Below are positions 11,126 to 46,483 of a DNA stretch of 64,000 bases, in pieces. A model generated the notes under the pieces. It was not told where the DNA came from, ran no database searches, and saw only the letters and a program-made list of their open reading frames with translations. The stretch is from Candidatus Omnitrophota bacterium. GTDB lineage: Bacteria; Omnitrophota; Gorgyraeia; Gygaellales; Profunditerraquicolaceae. Each line of letters starts with the position of its first letter. The first letter of the stretch is position 1. A program made the position numbers and the translations under genes. The stretch is taken from NCBI GenBank assembly GCA_026387335.1, contig JAPLLX010000004.1, positions 13,955 to 77,954 of the forward strand, in the 5' to 3' direction.

Positions 11126-12307
11126 TTAGTCATAGTTCTCCTTTAAAAGCTCTGGCTTTAAATCTATAAACTCAATCCCCTTCTCCTTGCCGTTCATCAG
11201 CCGGAATATTTCTTTTATAGAATCCTTAGTGATATCGCGTCCGCCTAAACCTACCACAAAACTGTTTATACTTTGAGGTTTCTTCGTCTTGCCGGAAAAT
11301 ACAGCCTTAACTTCCACGTGAAGAGGAGCAAATGACCCTAAAGAGAGGGCCCGATCAATAACCGCGACTTTAGGGATATTTTTTAAAGCAGTGTATATCT
11401 CATCAACTGGAAAAGGCCTTAAAGATGTAACCTTAAGTAAACCCACTTTTTTACCCTTGACCCTTAATTCATCAATGACCTCTTTTATTGTACCGCAGAC
11501 TGAGCCCATAGCCACAATCACTTTTTCAGCATCCTTAAGCTGATAACCCTCAACTAAGCCATTATAAGTCCTGCCGAACACTTTTGAAAATTCCGCAGTA
11601 AGTTTAGGGATAAGAGCTAAAGCTTCTTTATGTGTTTCATTAAGGGCATAGCGAGCCTCCATATAATATTCAGGGTCAACTAACGGACCCAAGGTCAGAG
11701 GATTCTCTACATCTAATTTATAAGGGGGCTTATAAGGCGGTAAAAATTTATCTACCTGTTCCTGCGTGGGCATATCTACTGTCTCTAACCCGTGAGTAAG
11801 AATAAAACCATCCATACAGACCATCACCGGAAGCATTATGGATTTATCTTCGCCTAATTTGTAAGCGATAAGATGTAGATCCACTACTTCCTGTATATCT
11901 TCGGCATGGAACTGAATCCAGCCTGAATCGCGCAGGGAGACCGCATCCTGATGGTCGTTCCAGATATTTATGGGAGCGGATATCGCCCGGGCAGCAGTAG
12001 TCATAATTACAGGTAAACGCATGCCGGCAATATTATAAAGGACTTCGGCCATATAAAACAACCCTTGAGAACTGGTAGCGGTATAAGCGCGCACCCCTGT
12101 TGCCACTGCGCCTAAAACTACGGAGGCCGCGGAATGTTCGCTTTCTACATTAACAAATTGGGCATTCAGCTGGCCGTCAGCGACTATCTGGGCAAGTCCT
12201 TCCACAATATGAGTCTGAGGAGTAATGGGGTAGGCGGAGATTACTCCGGGCTTACAGCGCTTGATAATCTCAGCTACCGCCATTGAACCTTCTAATAATT
12301 CTTTCAT
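11126..12307 (-). CDS. porA: Pyruvate:ferredoxin oxidoreductase alpha subunit
   Basis: 393 aa; typical PorA N-terminus (MAVAEIIKRCKPGVISAYPITPQTHIVE). Confidence 0.85.
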   Translation of the reverse strand: MKELLEGSMAVAEIIKRCKPGVISAYPITPQTHIVEGLAQIVADGQLNAQFVNVESEHSAASVVLGAVATGVRAYTATSSQGLFYMAEVLYNIAGMRLPVIMTTAARAISAPINIWNDHQDAVSLRDSGWIQFHAEDIQEVVDLHLIAYKLGEDKSIMLPVMVCMDGFILTHGLETVDMPTQEQVDKFLPPYKPPYKLDVENPLTLGPLVDPEYYMEARYALNETHKEALALIPKLTAEFSKVFGRTYNGLVEGYQLKDAEKVIVAMGSVCGTIKEVIDELRVKGKKVGLLKVTSLRPFPVDEIYTALKNIPKVAVIDRALSLGSFAPLHVEVKAVFSGKTKKPQSINSFVVGLGGRDITKDSIKEIFRLMNGKEKGIEFIDLKPELLKENYD

Positions 12308-19447: not shown

Positions 19448-20167
19448 TTACAGCAAATAATCTTTCTTTATGCGCCGGACACTTCTAAAGATATTCTTTT
19501 TTATTTCCGGACAGGTCTTTTTTAAATCCTGGATAATTTTACCCATCTTTGCGCGGTTAGAGGTAACCGAATTTGGGCAAACGCAGGTATCGTGGGGGAT
19601 CTTTTCTTCTTTAGCAAAGCGTTTAATCATATATTCTTCAACATAGGCCAGCGGCCTGATCAGGGTGATCTTACCCTTAAATAATTCCTGCTTCGGCTTC
19701 ATTGCCGAGATTTCTCCCTGAAAGAATAGATTTAATAAAATCGTCTCAATGATATCATCCATATGGTGGCCCAGGGCAACTTTAGTGCACTTAAGCCGGT
19801 CAGCCACTTCAAATAGGGCCTTTCTTCTATTCCAGGAACACCAGAAACAATTTATATCTTTCTTCTTGGTTTTACGCAAGGTATCGACTTTTTCAATATG
19901 GTATTCAACATTCGCCTGCTTAAAATACCTTTCCAGCTTTTTAGATATTGATTTAGGATAACCCATATCAATATGCACCGCCACTAAATTGTATTTTAAC
20001 GGGACAAACGCGCGCCTATCGTTTAAGATACGCAGGAGTGTCAGGCTATCCTTGCCGCCGGATACGGCCACGGCAATCTTATCGCCCTCAGAGAGCATAT
20101 TATAATCTATGATTGCCCTGCCTATGCGTTTGGAGATATAAAATTCCGGTCCCTGTAAGATTCCCAT
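19448..20167 (-). CDS. ttcA: PP-loop ATPase, tRNA 2-thiocytidine synthase TtcA-like
   Basis: SGGKDS PP-loop and CxxC pairs. Confidence 0.7.
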   Translation of the reverse strand: MGILQGPEFYISKRIGRAIIDYNMLSEGDKIAVAVSGGKDSLTLLRILNDRRAFVPLKYNLVAVHIDMGYPKSISKKLERYFKQANVEYHIEKVDTLRKTKKKDINCFWCSWNRRKALFEVADRLKCTKVALGHHMDDIIETILLNLFFQGEISAMKPKQELFKGKITLIRPLAYVEEYMIKRFAKEEKIPHDTCVCPNSVTSNRAKMGKIIQDLKKTCPEIKKNIFRSVRRIKKDYLL

Positions 20168-20526
20168 TATTTGGCAAAGATTGTATAGAGCGCAATGATT
20201 AATAAAAATATTCCAAAGGCTTTTCTTAAAACAAGGTTGGAAAGCATTTCCGCCATATTGGCTCCCAGAAGCCCGCCGATCAAGAACCCGATACAGATAA
20301 ACGCGGCGATATAAAAATGCACGTGTCCACTATGATAATACTTCATTACCGCCAGAAGCCCTATCGGTAGGAGCATGATCGCCAGAGTGGTCCCCTGCGC
20401 CTCATGCTGCGACAAACCTACCAAAAAAACCAAAGCCGGAATAAGTATCGTCCCCCCGCCTATCCCGAACATTCCGGAAAGTGTGCCCGCCGTCAACCCT
20501 AAAACAAGATACAAAATTTCTTTCAT
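20167..20526 (-). CDS. TSUP (TauE/SafE) family membrane transporter, half-size
   Basis: GxGGG motif (FGIGGGTILIPAL); 119 aa with 4 TM segments. Confidence 0.6.
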   Translation of the reverse strand: MKEILYLVLGLTAGTLSGMFGIGGGTILIPALVFLVGLSQHEAQGTTLAIMLLPIGLLAVMKYYHSGHVHFYIAAFICIGFLIGGLLGANMAEMLSNLVLRKAFGIFLLIIALYTIFAK

Positions 20527-20547
20527 AATTTATCCTTTCCGCTCATT

Positions 20548-20765
20548 TATTCTATAGCTATTTCGCTCTCAGGGTATTGTTCGCGTGCGAAATTTTTCGC
20601 CGTGTGCTACGGTTTACGACTCCTTCCGGCAGCGCAGTGTTCCTCACGCATAAGGGTATTGCCTATACTCGCCGTAAAGCCTTGCACACACGTAGCTAAT
20701 AGCTTGGCCGAAAAATTTCTAATTGCCCGCTTACAATACCCTTCGGCAAAATATCTATAGAATAC
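20548..20765. repeat. Long imperfect inverted repeat (~55-bp arms, ~85% identical, ~100-bp centre); looks like a MITE or a long RNA hairpin
   Basis: Left arm tattctatagctatttcgctctcagggtattgttcgcgtgcgaaatttttcgcc aligned by eye to the reverse complement of the right arm, tattctatagatattttgccgaagggtattgtaagcgggcaattagaaatttttcggcc. Confidence 0.55.
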
Positions 20766-20766
20766 A

Positions 20767-20932
20767 TTAGCGGATGGATTGGCTTGTTCCGGAGCAGGAC
20801 GTAACGCAGGCGAAGCGGGCAGGGTTGCCTACAATATAAGTCCCGGCAGAGCGAAGCCGAGTAGCCGAGCGGGATTTTCCACGCTGGGGAAAATCACGCG
20901 TTCCTGCGAGGAACAAGACAAACCAGACGCTA
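20767..20932 (+). ncRNA. Copy 1 of a ~165-nt conserved structured element (candidate sRNA or repeat element); copy 2 at 45341..45505
   Basis: About 90% identical to copy 2. An internal perfect hairpin GATTTTCC-acgct-GGGGAAAATC is conserved. Terminal stems show compensatory changes between copies (cttgttcc/ggaacaag against cttgtttc/gaaacaaa; gga..tcc against ggg..ccc). Confidence 0.45.
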
Positions 20933-20936
20933 TGAA

Positions 20937-22742
20937 TTATATTCTTCTGGAATCAGCGACCAGTTTGCGTATTTCTTTAGTGACCGGATGCTTCATTAAA
21001 TCTTCAAGGGAAAGCGGGATTTTGAGCGACCAGTTCTTGTCGCTTATTGTACCGGGGGTATTGAATCTATATTGATACGCGTCACCGGACAAAACATCAT
21101 CCAGATACAAAAGGTCAATTATTGTATTTATACAGAATAGGGAACTCGATTCCAGGTTTAATTTTAAGACAGCCCGGAATATTTCTTTATCACATTTCTC
21201 ACGCATCGGGCCGAGCAGACCCAAATGCTTCCAGAGTTTTTCTTTCTCCCCGCATGTATTCTCATATAAACCCATTAAGACGTGCAACCTATCTTTAGGG
21301 ACAGTCCCCTGCGGGGACAGTCCCTTGATTAACTTATCAACCGAATCAATTCCTTCTTTCCAGCGCAATCTCCCATGCTGAGAACGGACCGCGTCAAAAA
21401 GCTCAAGTTTTACCCGGTCAAAATCAATCCCCGCTTCAACGCACTTTCTGCGGAATAGATCCTCATCCACTGTCCCAGCCTCATTCTCCCACCAGGCAGG
21501 CCAGTTAGTCGTATCATGCGTGGAAAGCATAGCGACAGAAAACTTACGATACTCCTCGGGTTTTAAGAAATCGCGCTTAATCTTCCAATCCTTAACCCAA
21601 CGCTGCACGTCATTACCCGGTATCTTTAATTTTTCTAAAGTTTCGGTGCAGGCCTTAGGGATTACCCCTAAATCTTCGGCGCACAAAAACATTTTTGTGC
21701 TCTCAAGCATAACCTCTAATATCTTCTGGCCATGCGCCTGCCACTCGGATTCATTGACCGGATCAAAAAATCCGTTTAAGCCCTGATTTTCAATAGGTTC
21801 GTTATAAGGAATACTCCAGATACGAAATAAACCGACTACATGATCAATCCTGATGATATCGTAAAAATTCTCGGCGAATTTTAATTTCTCTTTTAAGTAT
21901 TTGTATCCATCAGCCGCGATTTTTCCCCAATTATAGGTAGGCATTCCCCAGCGTTGGCCGCGGGCAGCATACATATCCGGCGGCGCGCCGGCGGCAAATT
22001 CCAATTTGAAAAATTCCGGATGGCTCCAGACATCGCTTGAGTCGCGGGAGACCAAGATAGGCAGGTCTCCGTTGATAAAAACTTTCTTCTGCCGGGCGTA
22101 ATCCTTAACAGCCTTAAATTGTTCAAAGAGCTTCCATTGTACCCACTCTTGAAATTTAATTTCCTGGGCATTAGTTTTACGGAAATTTTCTAAGGCCGCC
22201 TTATCCCGGTTTCTAAACTCTACCGGCCAATCATACCAAGCCCTATTTTCCCATTTTGCTTTAAGAGTTTTAAACAAAGCGTAATCTAAGAGCCAATAAC
22301 TGTTCTCGCTCCTGAAACGGCTAAAAAGTTCCGGACTAGCGGCGGCGTCCAATAAGAAAATTTCCCGCAATATGCGTATTTTTTCATTCTTCATCCCGTA
22401 ATCCACATATCGCTTATCCGTTTTTAAGTTTTTACGCAAGGCTTCGATTTGCCTTTTAATGGATTTGTTTTTAGGCAGGGGTAAATGGCTAAGAGAAATA
22501 TAAAGCGGCTCGAGCGCGTTCGCGCTTAAAGCGTCATACGGACAGAATAAGCCTCCCATATCATTCATCGGTAAAAGCTGGATAATGGAATTGCCCGTAG
22601 GAGTTGCCCAATCAATGACTGATCTTAAATCATTCAGGTCACCTGCGCCAAAACTATTTTTTGAATAGACTGCGAATAACGGGACTAATACCCCTGAACT
22701 TTTCTTAGTTAGAAAAGATTGCGGCTGGTTTGACTGCGGCAT
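20937..22742 (-). CDS. malQ: 4-alpha-glucanotransferase (amylomaltase, GH77)
   Basis: 601 aa; GVLVPLFAVYS...GDL N-terminus typical of GH77. Confidence 0.75.
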   Translation of the reverse strand: MPQSNQPQSFLTKKSSGVLVPLFAVYSKNSFGAGDLNDLRSVIDWATPTGNSIIQLLPMNDMGGLFCPYDALSANALEPLYISLSHLPLPKNKSIKRQIEALRKNLKTDKRYVDYGMKNEKIRILREIFLLDAAASPELFSRFRSENSYWLLDYALFKTLKAKWENRAWYDWPVEFRNRDKAALENFRKTNAQEIKFQEWVQWKLFEQFKAVKDYARQKKVFINGDLPILVSRDSSDVWSHPEFFKLEFAAGAPPDMYAARGQRWGMPTYNWGKIAADGYKYLKEKLKFAENFYDIIRIDHVVGLFRIWSIPYNEPIENQGLNGFFDPVNESEWQAHGQKILEVMLESTKMFLCAEDLGVIPKACTETLEKLKIPGNDVQRWVKDWKIKRDFLKPEEYRKFSVAMLSTHDTTNWPAWWENEAGTVDEDLFRRKCVEAGIDFDRVKLELFDAVRSQHGRLRWKEGIDSVDKLIKGLSPQGTVPKDRLHVLMGLYENTCGEKEKLWKHLGLLGPMREKCDKEIFRAVLKLNLESSSLFCINTIIDLLYLDDVLSGDAYQYRFNTPGTISDKNWSLKIPLSLEDLMKHPVTKEIRKLVADSRRI

Positions 22743-40104: not shown

Positions 40105-40142
40105 ATTGGTTCTCCTTTCAATGTTTGGGCAATATTCTTGGA

Positions 40143-40215
40143 GCGGGAGGCGGGATTCGAACCCGTGACATCAACCTTGGCAAGGTTGCGCTCTACCAGC
40201 TGAGCTACTCCCGCG
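40143..40215 (-). tRNA. tRNA-Gly (GCC)
   Basis: Cloverleaf read on the reverse strand: GCGGGAG acceptor, anticodon loop CUUGCCAAG, TPsiC arm GGGTTCGAATCCC. CCA is not encoded. Confidence 0.85.
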
Positions 40216-40224
40216 TTACCTAAC

Positions 40225-40287
40225 GCGCACCGACGCAATTAGCGCACAAGCGCACGCCGACGCAATACCTGTTAGCGTCGGGCGCTC
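40225..40287. repeat. CCGACGC hairpin family, second locus: CGCCGACGC-AATACCTGTTA-GCGTCGGGCG at 40256..40285, plus a partial copy GCGCACCGACGCAATTAGCGC at 40225..40245, between tRNA-Gly and tRNA-Leu
   Basis: Same stem and loop architecture as 9647..9676. Confidence 0.4.
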
Positions 40288-40334
40288 CTATTAACTGCCG
40301 GGTACTGCTTGAATACTTTATCGAAAAATTTAAG

Positions 40335-40416
40335 TGGGCGGAAGAGGATTTGAACCTCCAAGGGTTGCCCCAATAGCTCCTAAGGCTATCGCGTATGCCA
40401 ATTCCGCCATCCGCCC
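40335..40416 (-). tRNA. tRNA-Leu (TAG)
   Basis: 82 nt with a long variable arm; anticodon loop CUUAGGA; GGTTCAAATCC T-arm. CCA is not encoded. Confidence 0.8.
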
Positions 40417-40450
40417 TCACAACCTCTTACCGCTTTTTAAAAAAATCAAG

Positions 40451-40523
40451 TGAGCCTCCCGAGACTCGAACTCGGCACACGCGGCTTAAAAAGCCGCTGC
40501 TCTACCAGATGAGCTAGAGGCCC
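40451..40523 (-). tRNA. tRNA-Lys (TTT)
   Basis: GGGCCTC acceptor with a G-U pair; anticodon loop CUUUUUAAG; GAGTTCGAGTCTC T-arm. Confidence 0.85.
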
Positions 40524-43368: not shown

Positions 43369-45159
43369 CTATTTTCGTAACTCTTGCATTGAATAAAGCC
43401 GCTTATATAAACCATCCCTCTTTAAAAGCTCTTCATGGGGCCCGGATTCGGCAATAGCGCCTTTGTCCAAGACCACAATTTTATTCGCGCTTCTGACTGT
43501 AGAAAGCCTGTGGGCGATGACAAATACCGTACGACCCTGAATAAGCCTGTCTAAAGCGTCCTGGACTATCCGTTCTGACTCCGAATCCAGCTGGGAAGTA
43601 GCCTCATCCAGGATTAAAATAGGCGGATTCTTAAGCAGGGCCCGGGCTATAGCGATCCTCTGGCGTTCGCCTCCTGAAATACGCATACCCCTATCCCCGA
43701 TAACCGTAGCATAGCCTTGGGGCAGGTGACTGATAAAATCATGGGCATTAGCCTGCAGCGCTGCCTGTTTAATCTCTTCATCTGTCGCCCCGGGTTTACC
43801 GTAAGCGATATTCGCCTTAATGGTATCATTAAAAAGTATGGTCTCCTGGGTAACAATCCCGACGAGTTGGCGTAACGACTTTAGGCTAACATCTTTTATA
43901 TCCGTACCATCAATTAAAACCCTCCCCTTTTTAGGGTCATAGAAACGCGGGATTAAATCCAAAAGCGTGGTCTTGCCTGTCCCGCTGGGCCCGACGATAG
44001 CCAGGACTGAACCATACGGGACATCTAAACTTACCCCTTTAAGAACCTGATTATCGCCATAACTAAACCAGACATTCTCAAAGACAACATTATTTTTAAA
44101 TCCTTTTAATTCTTTAACCGTAAGGGATTCCACTACGCTGGGCTCTGTTTCCAAGACTTCATAGATGCGCTCGCTGGCGGCTACCGCCTGCTGATTTAAA
44201 GAATTTACCTGGCTTAATTTCTTAAAAGGCCGGATAGTGGATAGAAGCGCGCCGAGGAATAATCCAAAGACGCCGAAAGAGATTTTTCCGGAGATGACTT
44301 CCCTCCCCCCTAAGAAGAATATAATTACGCCCGCTATACAGCCTAAGATCTCGGTTGCCGGGCTTAAAAGCAGCATACGTTTAATAGATTTCATGGAAAC
44401 ACGGTAATAATCATTATTTACCTTATTGAATTTCTTTATTTCGTAATCCTCCATATTAAAACCTTTAACAATACGCGCGCCGATAATCGTCTCGTAAAGT
44501 ATGGAGTTTGTATCCGCCATCTTCTCCTGCGAAGTCCTGGATAACTTTCTAAGTTTCTTGCCTACGACAGCGATTAAGTAGCCCAGGATCGCCAAAGGAG
44601 GAACGATAAAAATAACGAATTTGGCGTAAATAAACATGGTCAGCGAGAAGAATATGACTACCTGCGCCCCCTGATATACGATATCGGTTGAGCCATAAGA
44701 AACAGCGTTCTCTACCAGCTTGACGTCATTAGTGATGCGCGAAATCATCTCTCCGCCGCGTTTATGGGTAAAATAATCCAAAGAAAGCGACTGGAATTTA
44801 GCGTAAAGCCTGGCCTTTATATCCCTTACAATACGCTGGCCAATATCCGACATAAGATAGCTCTGCAGGAAGTTAAAAAACCCTTTAAGCACAAAGAGCA
44901 ATACAATGCCTACGGCCATATAGTTCAAAAGCACTACCGGTTCAATACTATTGAGCTTATCCACAAAATTAGCTAAAAACGCAGGTAGTTTGGCGGGTAT
45001 GATGATTTTTCTATTGGTAAGGACCTTATCCGCCAGCGGGACCATCATAGCTAAAGAAACCCCGTCAAATATGGCGGAAAAGACCATACAAACGGTAGCC
45101 AGGGAAAACATCCCTAAATATGGCTTAATAAATCGCAGTAACTTCAAGTAATCACGCAT
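43369..45159 (-). CDS. msbA: ABC transporter permease/ATPase, MsbA-like lipid exporter
   Basis: 6-TM domain plus Walker A GPSGTGKTT, LSGGERQR signature and Walker B ILILDEAT. ATG 45159 with a GGAGGAG RBS is preferred over the track start at 45294, which would read through a repeat element. Confidence 0.8.
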   Translation of the reverse strand: MRDYLKLLRFIKPYLGMFSLATVCMVFSAIFDGVSLAMMVPLADKVLTNRKIIIPAKLPAFLANFVDKLNSIEPVVLLNYMAVGIVLLFVLKGFFNFLQSYLMSDIGQRIVRDIKARLYAKFQSLSLDYFTHKRGGEMISRITNDVKLVENAVSYGSTDIVYQGAQVVIFFSLTMFIYAKFVIFIVPPLAILGYLIAVVGKKLRKLSRTSQEKMADTNSILYETIIGARIVKGFNMEDYEIKKFNKVNNDYYRVSMKSIKRMLLLSPATEILGCIAGVIIFFLGGREVISGKISFGVFGLFLGALLSTIRPFKKLSQVNSLNQQAVAASERIYEVLETEPSVVESLTVKELKGFKNNVVFENVWFSYGDNQVLKGVSLDVPYGSVLAIVGPSGTGKTTLLDLIPRFYDPKKGRVLIDGTDIKDVSLKSLRQLVGIVTQETILFNDTIKANIAYGKPGATDEEIKQAALQANAHDFISHLPQGYATVIGDRGMRISGGERQRIAIARALLKNPPILILDEATSQLDSESERIVQDALDRLIQGRTVFVIAHRLSTVRSANKIVVLDKGAIAESGPHEELLKRDGLYKRLYSMQELRK

Positions 45160-45229
45160 TTTTCGCTCCTCCTCAAAAGGAAAAGTATTGTAGCATATCT
45201 TCCCACCCCAAGCAACTTTTTTATTGCCT

Positions 45230-45324
45230 AATAAATGACACTGGCAAGTTTCCCGCTCAGGTCGGTTTTTTAACGCCATGGCTAAAACCTCCATTCGCGG
45301 ATAAACTTGCCAGTGTCATTTATT
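45230..45324. repeat. Perfect 22-bp inverted repeat (AATAAATGACACTGGCAAGTTT / AAACTTGCCAGTGTCATTTATT) with a 51-nt spacer that holds a nested GGTTTT..GCCATGGC..AAAACC palindrome
   Basis: Read directly. In the divergent msbA | Gfo-lpxB promoter region, immediately upstream of copy 2 of the 165-nt element. Confidence 0.7.
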
Positions 45325-45340
45325 ATAAGTATAAGTATCA

Positions 45341-45505
45341 TAGCGGATGACTTGGCTTGTTTCGGAGCAGGGCGTAACGCAGGCGGAGCGGGCAGGGTTG
45401 CCCACAATAAATGTCCCGGCAGAGCGCAGCCGAGTAGCCGAGCGGGATTTTCCACGCTGGGGAAAATCGTGCGGCCCTGCGAGAAACAAAACAAGGCAGG
45501 CGCTA
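45341..45505 (+). ncRNA. Copy 2 of the ~165-nt conserved structured element
   Basis: See 20767..20932. Lies 50 nt upstream of the Gfo/Idh/MocA start. Confidence 0.45.
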
Positions 45506-45556
45506 CTAAAGAAGATTATAGTTGCAATAAAGCAGGCGGTTTGCTATTATTCCCTT

Positions 45557-46483
45557 ATGGATAAATTAAAAGTGGCGGTGATTGGAGTAGGTCATTTGGG
45601 CAGTATTCATGCCAAAATATACCAGGAACTCCCCAATTGTTCACTTGTTGCTGTCTGCGATACGGATAGGGCTCGGCTGGATGCGGTCAGCAAAAGCTTA
45701 AATGTAACCGGATACCGGGATTACCGCGAAATCTTCGGCAAAGTAGATGCCGTAAGCGTAGCTACTCCCACAAAATCACATTACGCTGTCGCCAGCGAAT
45801 GCTTAAAGCATAATCTACACGCCTTAGTCGAGAAACCCTTTACTCCTACCCTTAAAGAAGCTGACGATCTGATAAAAATAGCCGGAGATAATAATTTAAT
45901 CCTACAGGTTGGGCATATTGAACGGTTTAATTCCGCTTTTAGCGCTACGCAAAAAATAATCAGGAACCCAAAGTTTATTGAATGCCACCGCCTCTCTTCT
46001 TTTCCCAACCGCTCGCTGGATGTAGGCGTGGTTTTAGACATCATGATCCATGATATTGATATAATCTTAGGCTTGGTAGACTCGCCCGTAGAGCGGATCG
46101 AATCCGTAGGCATAAATGTGCTTACGCATTTCGAAGATATTGCTAACGCCAGGATCACCTTTAAGAACGGCTGCGTAGCTAACCTTACGGCTAGCCGCAT
46201 TTCCGACGAAACCATGCGCAAGATCCGTATCTTTCAGGAGAATACCTATATTTCGCTGGATTATAAAAACGCCGAAGCCTGGGTCTATCGCAAAGGCCTC
46301 CTGAAAATTTCAAAAGAAATCCTGCCGATTGAAAAAGAACAACCCCTGCAAAAAGAACTCCAGGCATTTGTCAACTGCGTAATAGATAAAAAAGAGCCTC
46401 TTGTATCGGGCGTTGTCGCCCGCCAAGCCTTAAAAGTAGCGTTGGAAATCCAAGATCAGATATGGCAAAAAAACAAATCCTGA
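45557..46483 (+). CDS. Gfo/Idh/MocA-family NAD(P)-dependent oxidoreductase (possibly UDP-GlcNAc 3-dehydrogenase GnnA-like, given the lpxB context)
   Basis: MDKLKVAVIGVGHLGSIHAKIY Rossmann N-terminus. The track start at 45347 is an extension across the repeat. Confidence 0.65.
   Translation: MDKLKVAVIGVGHLGSIHAKIYQELPNCSLVAVCDTDRARLDAVSKSLNVTGYRDYREIFGKVDAVSVATPTKSHYAVASECLKHNLHALVEKPFTPTLKEADDLIKIAGDNNLILQVGHIERFNSAFSATQKIIRNPKFIECHRLSSFPNRSLDVGVVLDIMIHDIDIILGLVDSPVERIESVGINVLTHFEDIANARITFKNGCVANLTASRISDETMRKIRIFQENTYISLDYKNAEAWVYRKGLLKISKEILPIEKEQPLQKELQAFVNCVIDKKEPLVSGVVARQALKVALEIQDQIWQKNKS

Follow-up and report, generated by a model that had tools for sequence, protein, structure and literature searches.

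Structured MITEs and related repeats of bacteria, such as the Correia elements of Neisseria, the enterobacterial ERIC/IRU sequences and bcr1 of Bacillus cereus, fall in a size range of 100-250 bp, have no coding capacity and lie between genes in many copies and in either orientation; their ends form inverted repeats, their transcripts fold to a long hairpin, strains are polymorphic for them, and they mark points of rearrangement. The element described here, termed E, resembles them in all these respects and is itself small, non-coding and multi-copy, as MITEs are. However, each of the known families is confined to one genus or family and has conserved termini and target-site duplications, whereas in E the termini covary, no duplication was seen and the conserved part is an internal junction core that recurs across phyla. 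The REP/BIME sequences associated with RAYT (REPtrons) are likewise structure-selected hairpin repeats, are recognised in trans, occur as inverted pairs and can flank a gene, but they are simple hairpins of 20-40 nt with a conserved 5' tetranucleotide, whereas E is branched and 150-230 nt long; no RAYT gene was seen near any E copy. Integron attC sites (including the Vibrio VCRs) and pdif sites share with E the precedence of structure over sequence and a position beside small accessory, toxin or orphan genes, and pdif modules are bounded by inverted sites, as are the pairs of E copies described below. E differs from attC in possessing a conserved internal core sequence and in having no R'/R'' core sites, no like-oriented arrays and no integrase nearby; the sequences at the base of its stem (TAGCGG...CGCTA and variants) contain no attC motifs, and its copies are solitary or inverted. 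Orphan multi-copy structured RNAs and self-cleaving ribozymes known from comparative genomics, such as twister, hatchet, pistol and HEARO, combine conserved junction or loop nucleotides, covarying stems and optional hairpin insertions with many copies in diverse contexts of environmental bacteria, as E does, but their models do not match E, which has no inferable cleavage site or associated ORF. By analogy only, E can also be compared with the T- or Y-shaped end hairpins of parvovirus ITRs and Streptomyces telomeres, which are palindromes of ~150 nt with a long stem and two arms and stand as inverted pairs at the ends of a unit; these structures end linear replicons, whereas E is intrachromosomal, often stands alone and has cargo that does not resemble a replicon.

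The window, that is, the whole stretch of 64,000 nt analysed here (contig JAPLLX010000004.1 of a Candidatus Omnitrophota bacterium), contains two copies of E, copy A (20768-20932) and copy B (45341-45505), which are 89.1% identical over 165 nt on the same strand (blastn E-value 2.8e-59). No third copy was found in the window by blastn, and a covariance-model scan of the window agreed. The model, R1, was built from 14 Omnitrophota copies with the structure set by hand. Loci retrieved in other genomes and metagenomes carry L-numbers (L001, L003 and so on). The features of the two copies and of two adjoining elements, H and H2, are listed below.

20538..20766, no strand given: element H, conserved core 20576-20733 (inverted-repeat arms, nhmmer homologues, RNAalifold)
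20768..20932, plus strand: E copy A, subtype 1 (model R1, 201.7 bits over the full model length)
20768-20790 with 20910-20932, plus strand: P1 stem of copy A (alignment and pair tables)
20794-20800 with 20901-20907, plus strand: P1b of copy A (alignment and pair tables)
20814-20826, plus strand: core AGCGGGCAGGGTT of copy A
20827-20829 with 20845-20847, plus strand: P3 of copy A (alignment and pair tables)
20848-20856, plus strand: core AGAGCGAAG of copy A
20869-20880 with 20888-20899, plus strand: P4 stem of copy A (alignment and pair tables)
20873-20895, plus strand: invariant hairpin of copy A, inside P4
45229..45325, no strand given: element H2, hairpin of 97 nt located 5' of copy B, with 23-nt arms that match perfectly
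45341..45505, plus strand: E copy B, subtype 2 (model R1, 195.8 bits)
45446-45468, plus strand: invariant hairpin of copy B

Both copies are intergenic, in line with the preliminary description, which had reported two ~165-nt segments of ~90% identity at these positions. Copy A and the stop codon of the convergent malQ gene (4-alpha-glucanotransferase; 20937-22742, minus strand) are 4 nt apart; an exact look-up of the window's MalQ gave no record, and MalQ homologues place the organism in Omnitrophota. On its other flank, copy A lies past the start of a TauE-like ORF of 119 aa (20167-20526, minus strand). This ORF matches only positions 2-110 of the 237 positions of the TauE/SafE profile, i.e., its first half. 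L001 and L002 lack it in the corresponding spacer, and it may represent either a half-size gene or a fragment brought in together with the H+E module. Copy B is flanked by a divergent msbA-like gene (minus strand) and a Gfo/Idh/MocA gene (45557-46483, plus strand). The longest ORFs of msbA (641 aa; 43369-45294, minus strand) and gfo (378 aa; 45347-46483, plus strand) extend into the H2/E region; since the homologues have 596 aa and 303-308 aa, respectively, the real starts are placed at ~45159 (msbA) and ~45557 (gfo). The two copies have a G+C content of 57-60% (window mean, 44%), end in imperfect 23-nt inverted repeats that are 78-83% complementary and have predicted folds that beat those of shuffled sequences (z = -5.2 and -3.2), with folding better than that of shuffled sequence on both strands. 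The internal hairpin GATTTTCC-ACGCT-GGGGAAAATC, previously noted as invariant, is the same in both copies, and the two compensatory differences that had been named across the stems (outer stem, C-G to U-A; inner stem, A-U to G-C) are real and separate two subfamilies, subtype 2 of copy B being also that of the E copies in L001, L003 and L011. With two sequences, each of these differences amounts to about one event and is anecdotal; the support for the structure comes from the homologues.

From the outside inwards, E consists of a closing stem, P1 (20-45 bp, of lineage-specific sequence), a stem P1b and a three-way junction. The first junction arm contains P2 with AGCGGGCAYGGUU, followed by a variable hairpin, P3 (ranging in the family from 3 bp to over 100 nt, with insertions and deletions among homologues), and AGAGCGA; the second arm, P4, reads GAGCGn-GAUUUUCC-nCGCnGG-GGAAAAUC-nCGC. 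Three GAGCG motifs are present in E. Its termini are the least conserved part of the element: they vary and covary across the family, extended termini are shared within an Aminicenantes-type subfamily, and closing stems of up to 45 bp are shared by the copies of one genome. Larger insertions were also observed, namely a 70-nt hairpin nested inside the P4 arm in L131 (3533-3713) and an expansion of P3 by ~90 nt in L071 and L079, so that the P4 and P3 positions tolerate extra domains.

In a plain MAFFT alignment of 75 diverse copies, the pairs of P2 and P3 each showed three or four Watson-Crick types (GC 32, UA 18 and CG 9 for one P2 pair, for example). R1 recovered 108 copies at an E-value ≤ 1e-9, some of them without the exact hairpin used for searching. 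In the resulting model alignment, which is fitted to the structure so that pairing counts are somewhat inflated, standard pairs made up 92.8% of the pair cells compared to 67.4% in shuffled and 36-51% in slid controls, the covariation score was 0.58 compared to 0.14 (shuffled) and ~0.07 (slid), and double-sided changes occurred in 43 of the 46 pairs. When all column pairs were ranked by mutual information, the top 15 were all pairs of the model, and this ranking suggests that P2 is longer than modelled. G-U/U-G combinations were 2.5-fold more common than A-C/C-A (125 versus 49 in the 108-copy alignment), which marks the plus strand as the folded one. Judged by these comparisons between homologues, the fold of E is real and under selection, and it is the plus strand that folds.

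Metagenome searches with a 24-mer from the element as query yielded 12 loci with 14 distinct E copies. A genome scan with a 20-mer gave no matches, since that pattern held a G (alignment column 114) which, among 14 aligned copies, is specific to the two window copies. A second genome scan, for which the invariant 23-nt hairpin GATTTTCCNCGCNGGGGAAAATC served as the pattern, gave at least 117 stretches; the identity of the hairpin in these matches is imposed by the search, and the sequence to either side of it aligns with E throughout. Among the matches listed were MAGs labelled Omnitrophota, Aminicenantes, Auribacterota, Planctomycetales, Saccharibacteria and "Eubacteriales", with at least 4-7 E copies or contigs in single MAGs. 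E is a multi-copy intergenic element in several uncultivated bacterial phyla. The invariant hairpin motif was not found in IMG/VR contigs, nor was E found in PLSDB plasmids. A search of the whole window against Rfam 15 (4227 models) at the gathering threshold returned three tRNAs only, which form a gene cluster at 40142-40523 (minus strand), and no match for E; with both copies and their flanks, only spurious matches far below threshold were obtained at an E-value ≤ 10. E homologues of other phyla and an H element had no match in Rfam 15 either, and a literature search by sequence strings and topic returned nothing relevant to E. Within Rfam 15 and the searchable literature, E is therefore an undescribed family. 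The preliminary description had proposed that the element is a candidate for a new family and that its structure is under selection, as opposed to a recent duplication; both proposals are upheld, the first by the absence of any Rfam family for the window copies and their homologues, the second by covariation in more than 100 homologues.

Comparison with related genomes indicated that E behaves like a mobile repeat. Between the window and L007/L012, the fourfold-degenerate sites of malQ are 41-44% identical (saturated), whereas the adjacent E is 92-93% identical. Relative to the near relative L001, the malQ fourfold sites are 90% identical and E only 86%, L001 carrying the other subtype, and the whole H+E module, which lies between malQ and the next gene, is inverted. 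In L002 no E follows malQ; the GC-rich spacer at this place (11860-11935) contains a near-perfect 46-nt palindrome (CTCATCAGCGGGCCCTGCCGC...) and starts with TAGCGG as E does, and it is not homologous to E. The msbA-gfo spacer is empty in L133 and L134 and holds unrelated short hairpins in L132, which is from the same genome as L001 and whose Gfo is 98% identical to that of the window, and in L135. A filter-free model search detected no E at the msbA-gfo loci of these four related genomes (L132-L135); H2+E is found in this spacer in the window only and, compared to the empty site of L133/L134, has been inserted together. At this one point (window ~45225-45512, L132 3880-3940, L133 3950-3960, L135 3905-3950), three genomes have three different short structured inserts and a fourth has none, which suggests an insertion hot spot within a divergent promoter region. 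E copies are also situated at synteny breakpoints. Taken across relatives, these loci show that E copies have been gained and lost, swapped for another subtype and inverted, all independently of the flanking sequence. No target-site duplication was found, the terminal dinucleotides being inverted and not direct (UG...CA, UU...AA, AA...UU), and comparison of the filled and empty msbA-gfo sites revealed at most an ambiguous TA/TAA duplication. A TA target-site duplication was considered and rejected, as the terminal bases covary as a helix; because they change in this way, no target duplication is visible.

Clustering of 547 ORFs located within 2.5 kb of E copies revealed no common partner gene, only synteny clusters of close relatives, and none of TnpB, IscB, IS110, reverse transcriptase or integrase was a recurrent neighbour. 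Neither a transposase nor an autonomous parent element was seen within 4 kb of ~130 copies. With respect to the flanking genes, E was antisense to both neighbours in 52 cases, sense to both in 25, between divergent genes in 22 and between convergent genes in 7, these counts being approximate because some loci are orthologous. A co-directional gene was located downstream (plus strand) of 48% of the copies, the 5' side faced a divergent gene start in 71%, and stop codons were often found at a distance of 4-30 nt from E, start codons at 20-150 nt. Consensus scans detected no sigma-70-type promoter upstream of either window copy (counts were about those of shuffled sequence) and no intrinsic terminator or U-tract on the plus strand of either. 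By eye, an AT-rich, -10-like box precedes many E copies; it is inconsistent and was not counted as evidence.

Copies of E also occur as inverted pairs. Ten such pairs all have the minus-strand copy on the left and the plus-strand copy on the right, with the 5' ends pointing inwards, and one partial pair is opposite. Some pairs are spaced by 0.8-3.5 kb (L010, L023, L097, L062, L022, L047) and others are back to back (L060, L120, L110, L008). The genes that the pairs bracket, if any, are few, unrelated and of an accessory or defence-like kind; among them are those coding for an HTH/YdaS-like protein, a zeta toxin with a DMT protein, an Mrr-type nuclease and several orphans of ~220 aa. Homologues of the 251-aa cargo protein of L010 were found in E-free, phage-like contexts, and E is therefore not demonstrably travelling with its cargo.

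Omnitrophota copies of E are often accompanied on their 5' side by element H, a long imperfect hairpin of ~230 nt that lies directly 5' of copy A. Homologues of H were detected by nhmmer beside E in 12 further loci (13 with the window), on the 5' side; the H core is 5' of E in L001, L011, L003, L016, L085, L086, L089, L093, L106, L059 and L041, and 0.8 kb from E in L025. As oriented in this analysis, the strand of the H core is opposite to that of E, and the core reads ...AUUAGAAAUUUUUCGGCA...GUGUGCAAGGCUUUACGGCGAG...GAGCCGUAAACCGYAGCACACGGCGAAAAAUUUC... RNAalifold predicted 27 pairs from 12 members, 9 of them with compensatory changes, and the only signal in Rfam was a spurious miRNA-precursor hit well below threshold. 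H contains AGCGGGCA and GAGAGCGA, as E does. That H is a diverged E copy was considered and rejected despite these shared sequences, since R1 does not recognise H, and H is treated as a separate structured family. H2, the hairpin beside copy B, is also a recurrent partner of E: its arms and interior recur adjoining E in L030 and also in L003, where they enclose an H core; H2 may be an internally deleted H-type element. With H beside copy A and H2 beside copy B, both window copies are part of the same type of head-to-head two-element module.

We consider it probable that E is a non-autonomous, MITE-like dispersed element that needs the fold of one strand in order to propagate or function. The preliminary description had offered two possibilities, a novel small RNA or a repeat family, and of these the repeat family fits better: E is a multi-copy element found in either orientation, without a conserved neighbour and polymorphic among close relatives, and consensus scanning found neither a sigma-70-type promoter nor an intrinsic terminator. 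In its fold, a closing stem of free sequence encloses the three-way junction, whose arms present the core that is common to several phyla. The folded strand would be RNA read from the plus strand somewhat more probably than single-stranded DNA, a preference that derives from the branching of the core and from internal loops that are conserved and rich in purines, features more like an RNA-protein or RNA tertiary module than a simple recombinase hairpin, and from the antisense bias of E relative to genes. A factor encoded in trans would recognise the conserved core and not the termini, and dispersed copies may double as substrates for homologous recombination. Recombination among E copies would explain both the inversion of H+E between the window and L001 and the variable content of adjoining genes, and, as near-identical head-to-head repeats would promote inversion and gene turnover, the variable malQ-tilS slot could be accounted for without a dedicated recombinase. 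The high identity of E next to malQ could reflect purifying selection for a host function instead of recent spread.

An invariant branched core between termini that vary freely and covary, together with head-to-head pairs around defence-like and orphan genes, fits none of the MITE, REP and attC systems well and, if this reading holds, is a lead to a new mechanism of mobility or recombination or to a new functional RNA. It is possible, if doubtful, that E and H together constitute mobile or recombinogenic modules of a new class, with the three-way-junction fold as the recognition or catalytic unit. This unit could be an RNA, guide-like or self-processing, or else a single-strand end with a T shape like those of viral ITRs, and the head-to-head folds would delimit exchangeable slots for accessory genes in chromosomes of several uncultivated phyla, served by a trans-acting enzyme. 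To the same tentative degree, E may mark a mechanism that is not yet known.

Among the alternatives to a non-autonomous element, the one that survives best, while still unlikely, is that the fold acts as single-stranded DNA, i.e., as a hairpin for a trans-encoded HUH/Y1 transposase or tyrosine recombinase, as with REP/BIME and RAYT, the ends of IS200/IS605, integron attC and the folded attP of CTX phage. Such a role is in line with the conservation of structure while stem sequence is free, with the intergenic multi-copy distribution and the inverted pairs, and with the hot-spot behaviour and the accessory-gene cargo; moreover, the strand asymmetry seen in the G-U excess is equally expected of hairpins that act on one DNA strand. 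However, attC core sites (GTTRRRY / RYYYAAC) and like-oriented arrays are absent, E, with its 150-230 nt, greatly exceeds REPs and IS200 end hairpins in size and branching, and no such enzyme was found within 4 kb of copies. In co-directional contexts, furthermore, the folding strand is antisense to the genes by ~2:1, which is probably not what exposure of the lagging-strand template would predict.

Still less probable is a family of genes for trans-acting sRNAs that benefit the host, for example as protein-sequestering RNAs, and that have been duplicated or transferred in the manner of other sRNA paralogues. The strong covariation, the core kept across phyla, the strand marked by G-U over A-C and the conservation of E at malQ, far above that of neutral sites, are all compatible with this explanation; three GAGCG motifs and a conserved hairpin would suit protein sequestration, and the divergent gene start on the 5' side of 71% of the copies leaves room for a promoter. 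Against it, promoter and terminator signals are absent at both window copies by consensus scans, the synteny of E is not conserved, its presence varies between relatives whose Gfo proteins are 98% identical and the subtype has been swapped at one site. E copies also stand head to head around accessory genes, and their closing stems, up to 45 bp long and shared by the copies of a genome, resemble repeat termini.

A cis-acting mRNA element, whether it served as riboswitch, leader or terminator or as a hairpin for processing or stabilisation, is very improbable. The short distances that often separate E from a stop codon (4-30 nt) and a start codon (20-150 nt) would be suitable for such an element, and the long closing stem would probably suit RNase III, but the flanking genes are unrelated, both orientations occur with a co-directional downstream gene in 48% of the copies only, there is no U-tract, and the favoured strand is antisense to the flanking genes (52:25). 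That E is simply a recent DNA duplication, or a piece of coding sequence, without selection on structure has a negligible probability: an open frame does cross both copies, but most differences between copies A and B alter an amino acid (~12 amino-acid changes per 18 base differences, from the translations), P3 has insertions and deletions among homologues, and covariation extends over more than 100 copies and several phyla, so that the coding reading, whose frame is not conserved, was rejected.

If the reading of E as a dispersed element that depends on the fold of one strand holds, it would constitute a family of structured elements with hundreds of copies, at least five phylum-level labels and a common core. 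E and H come from Omnitrophota, Aminicenantes and Auribacterota, lineages with almost no known non-coding biology. A covariance model of E would avert spurious ORF calls in these genomes, such as the 378-aa and 641-aa ORFs at copy B, and would flag rearrangement hot spots in these MAGs.
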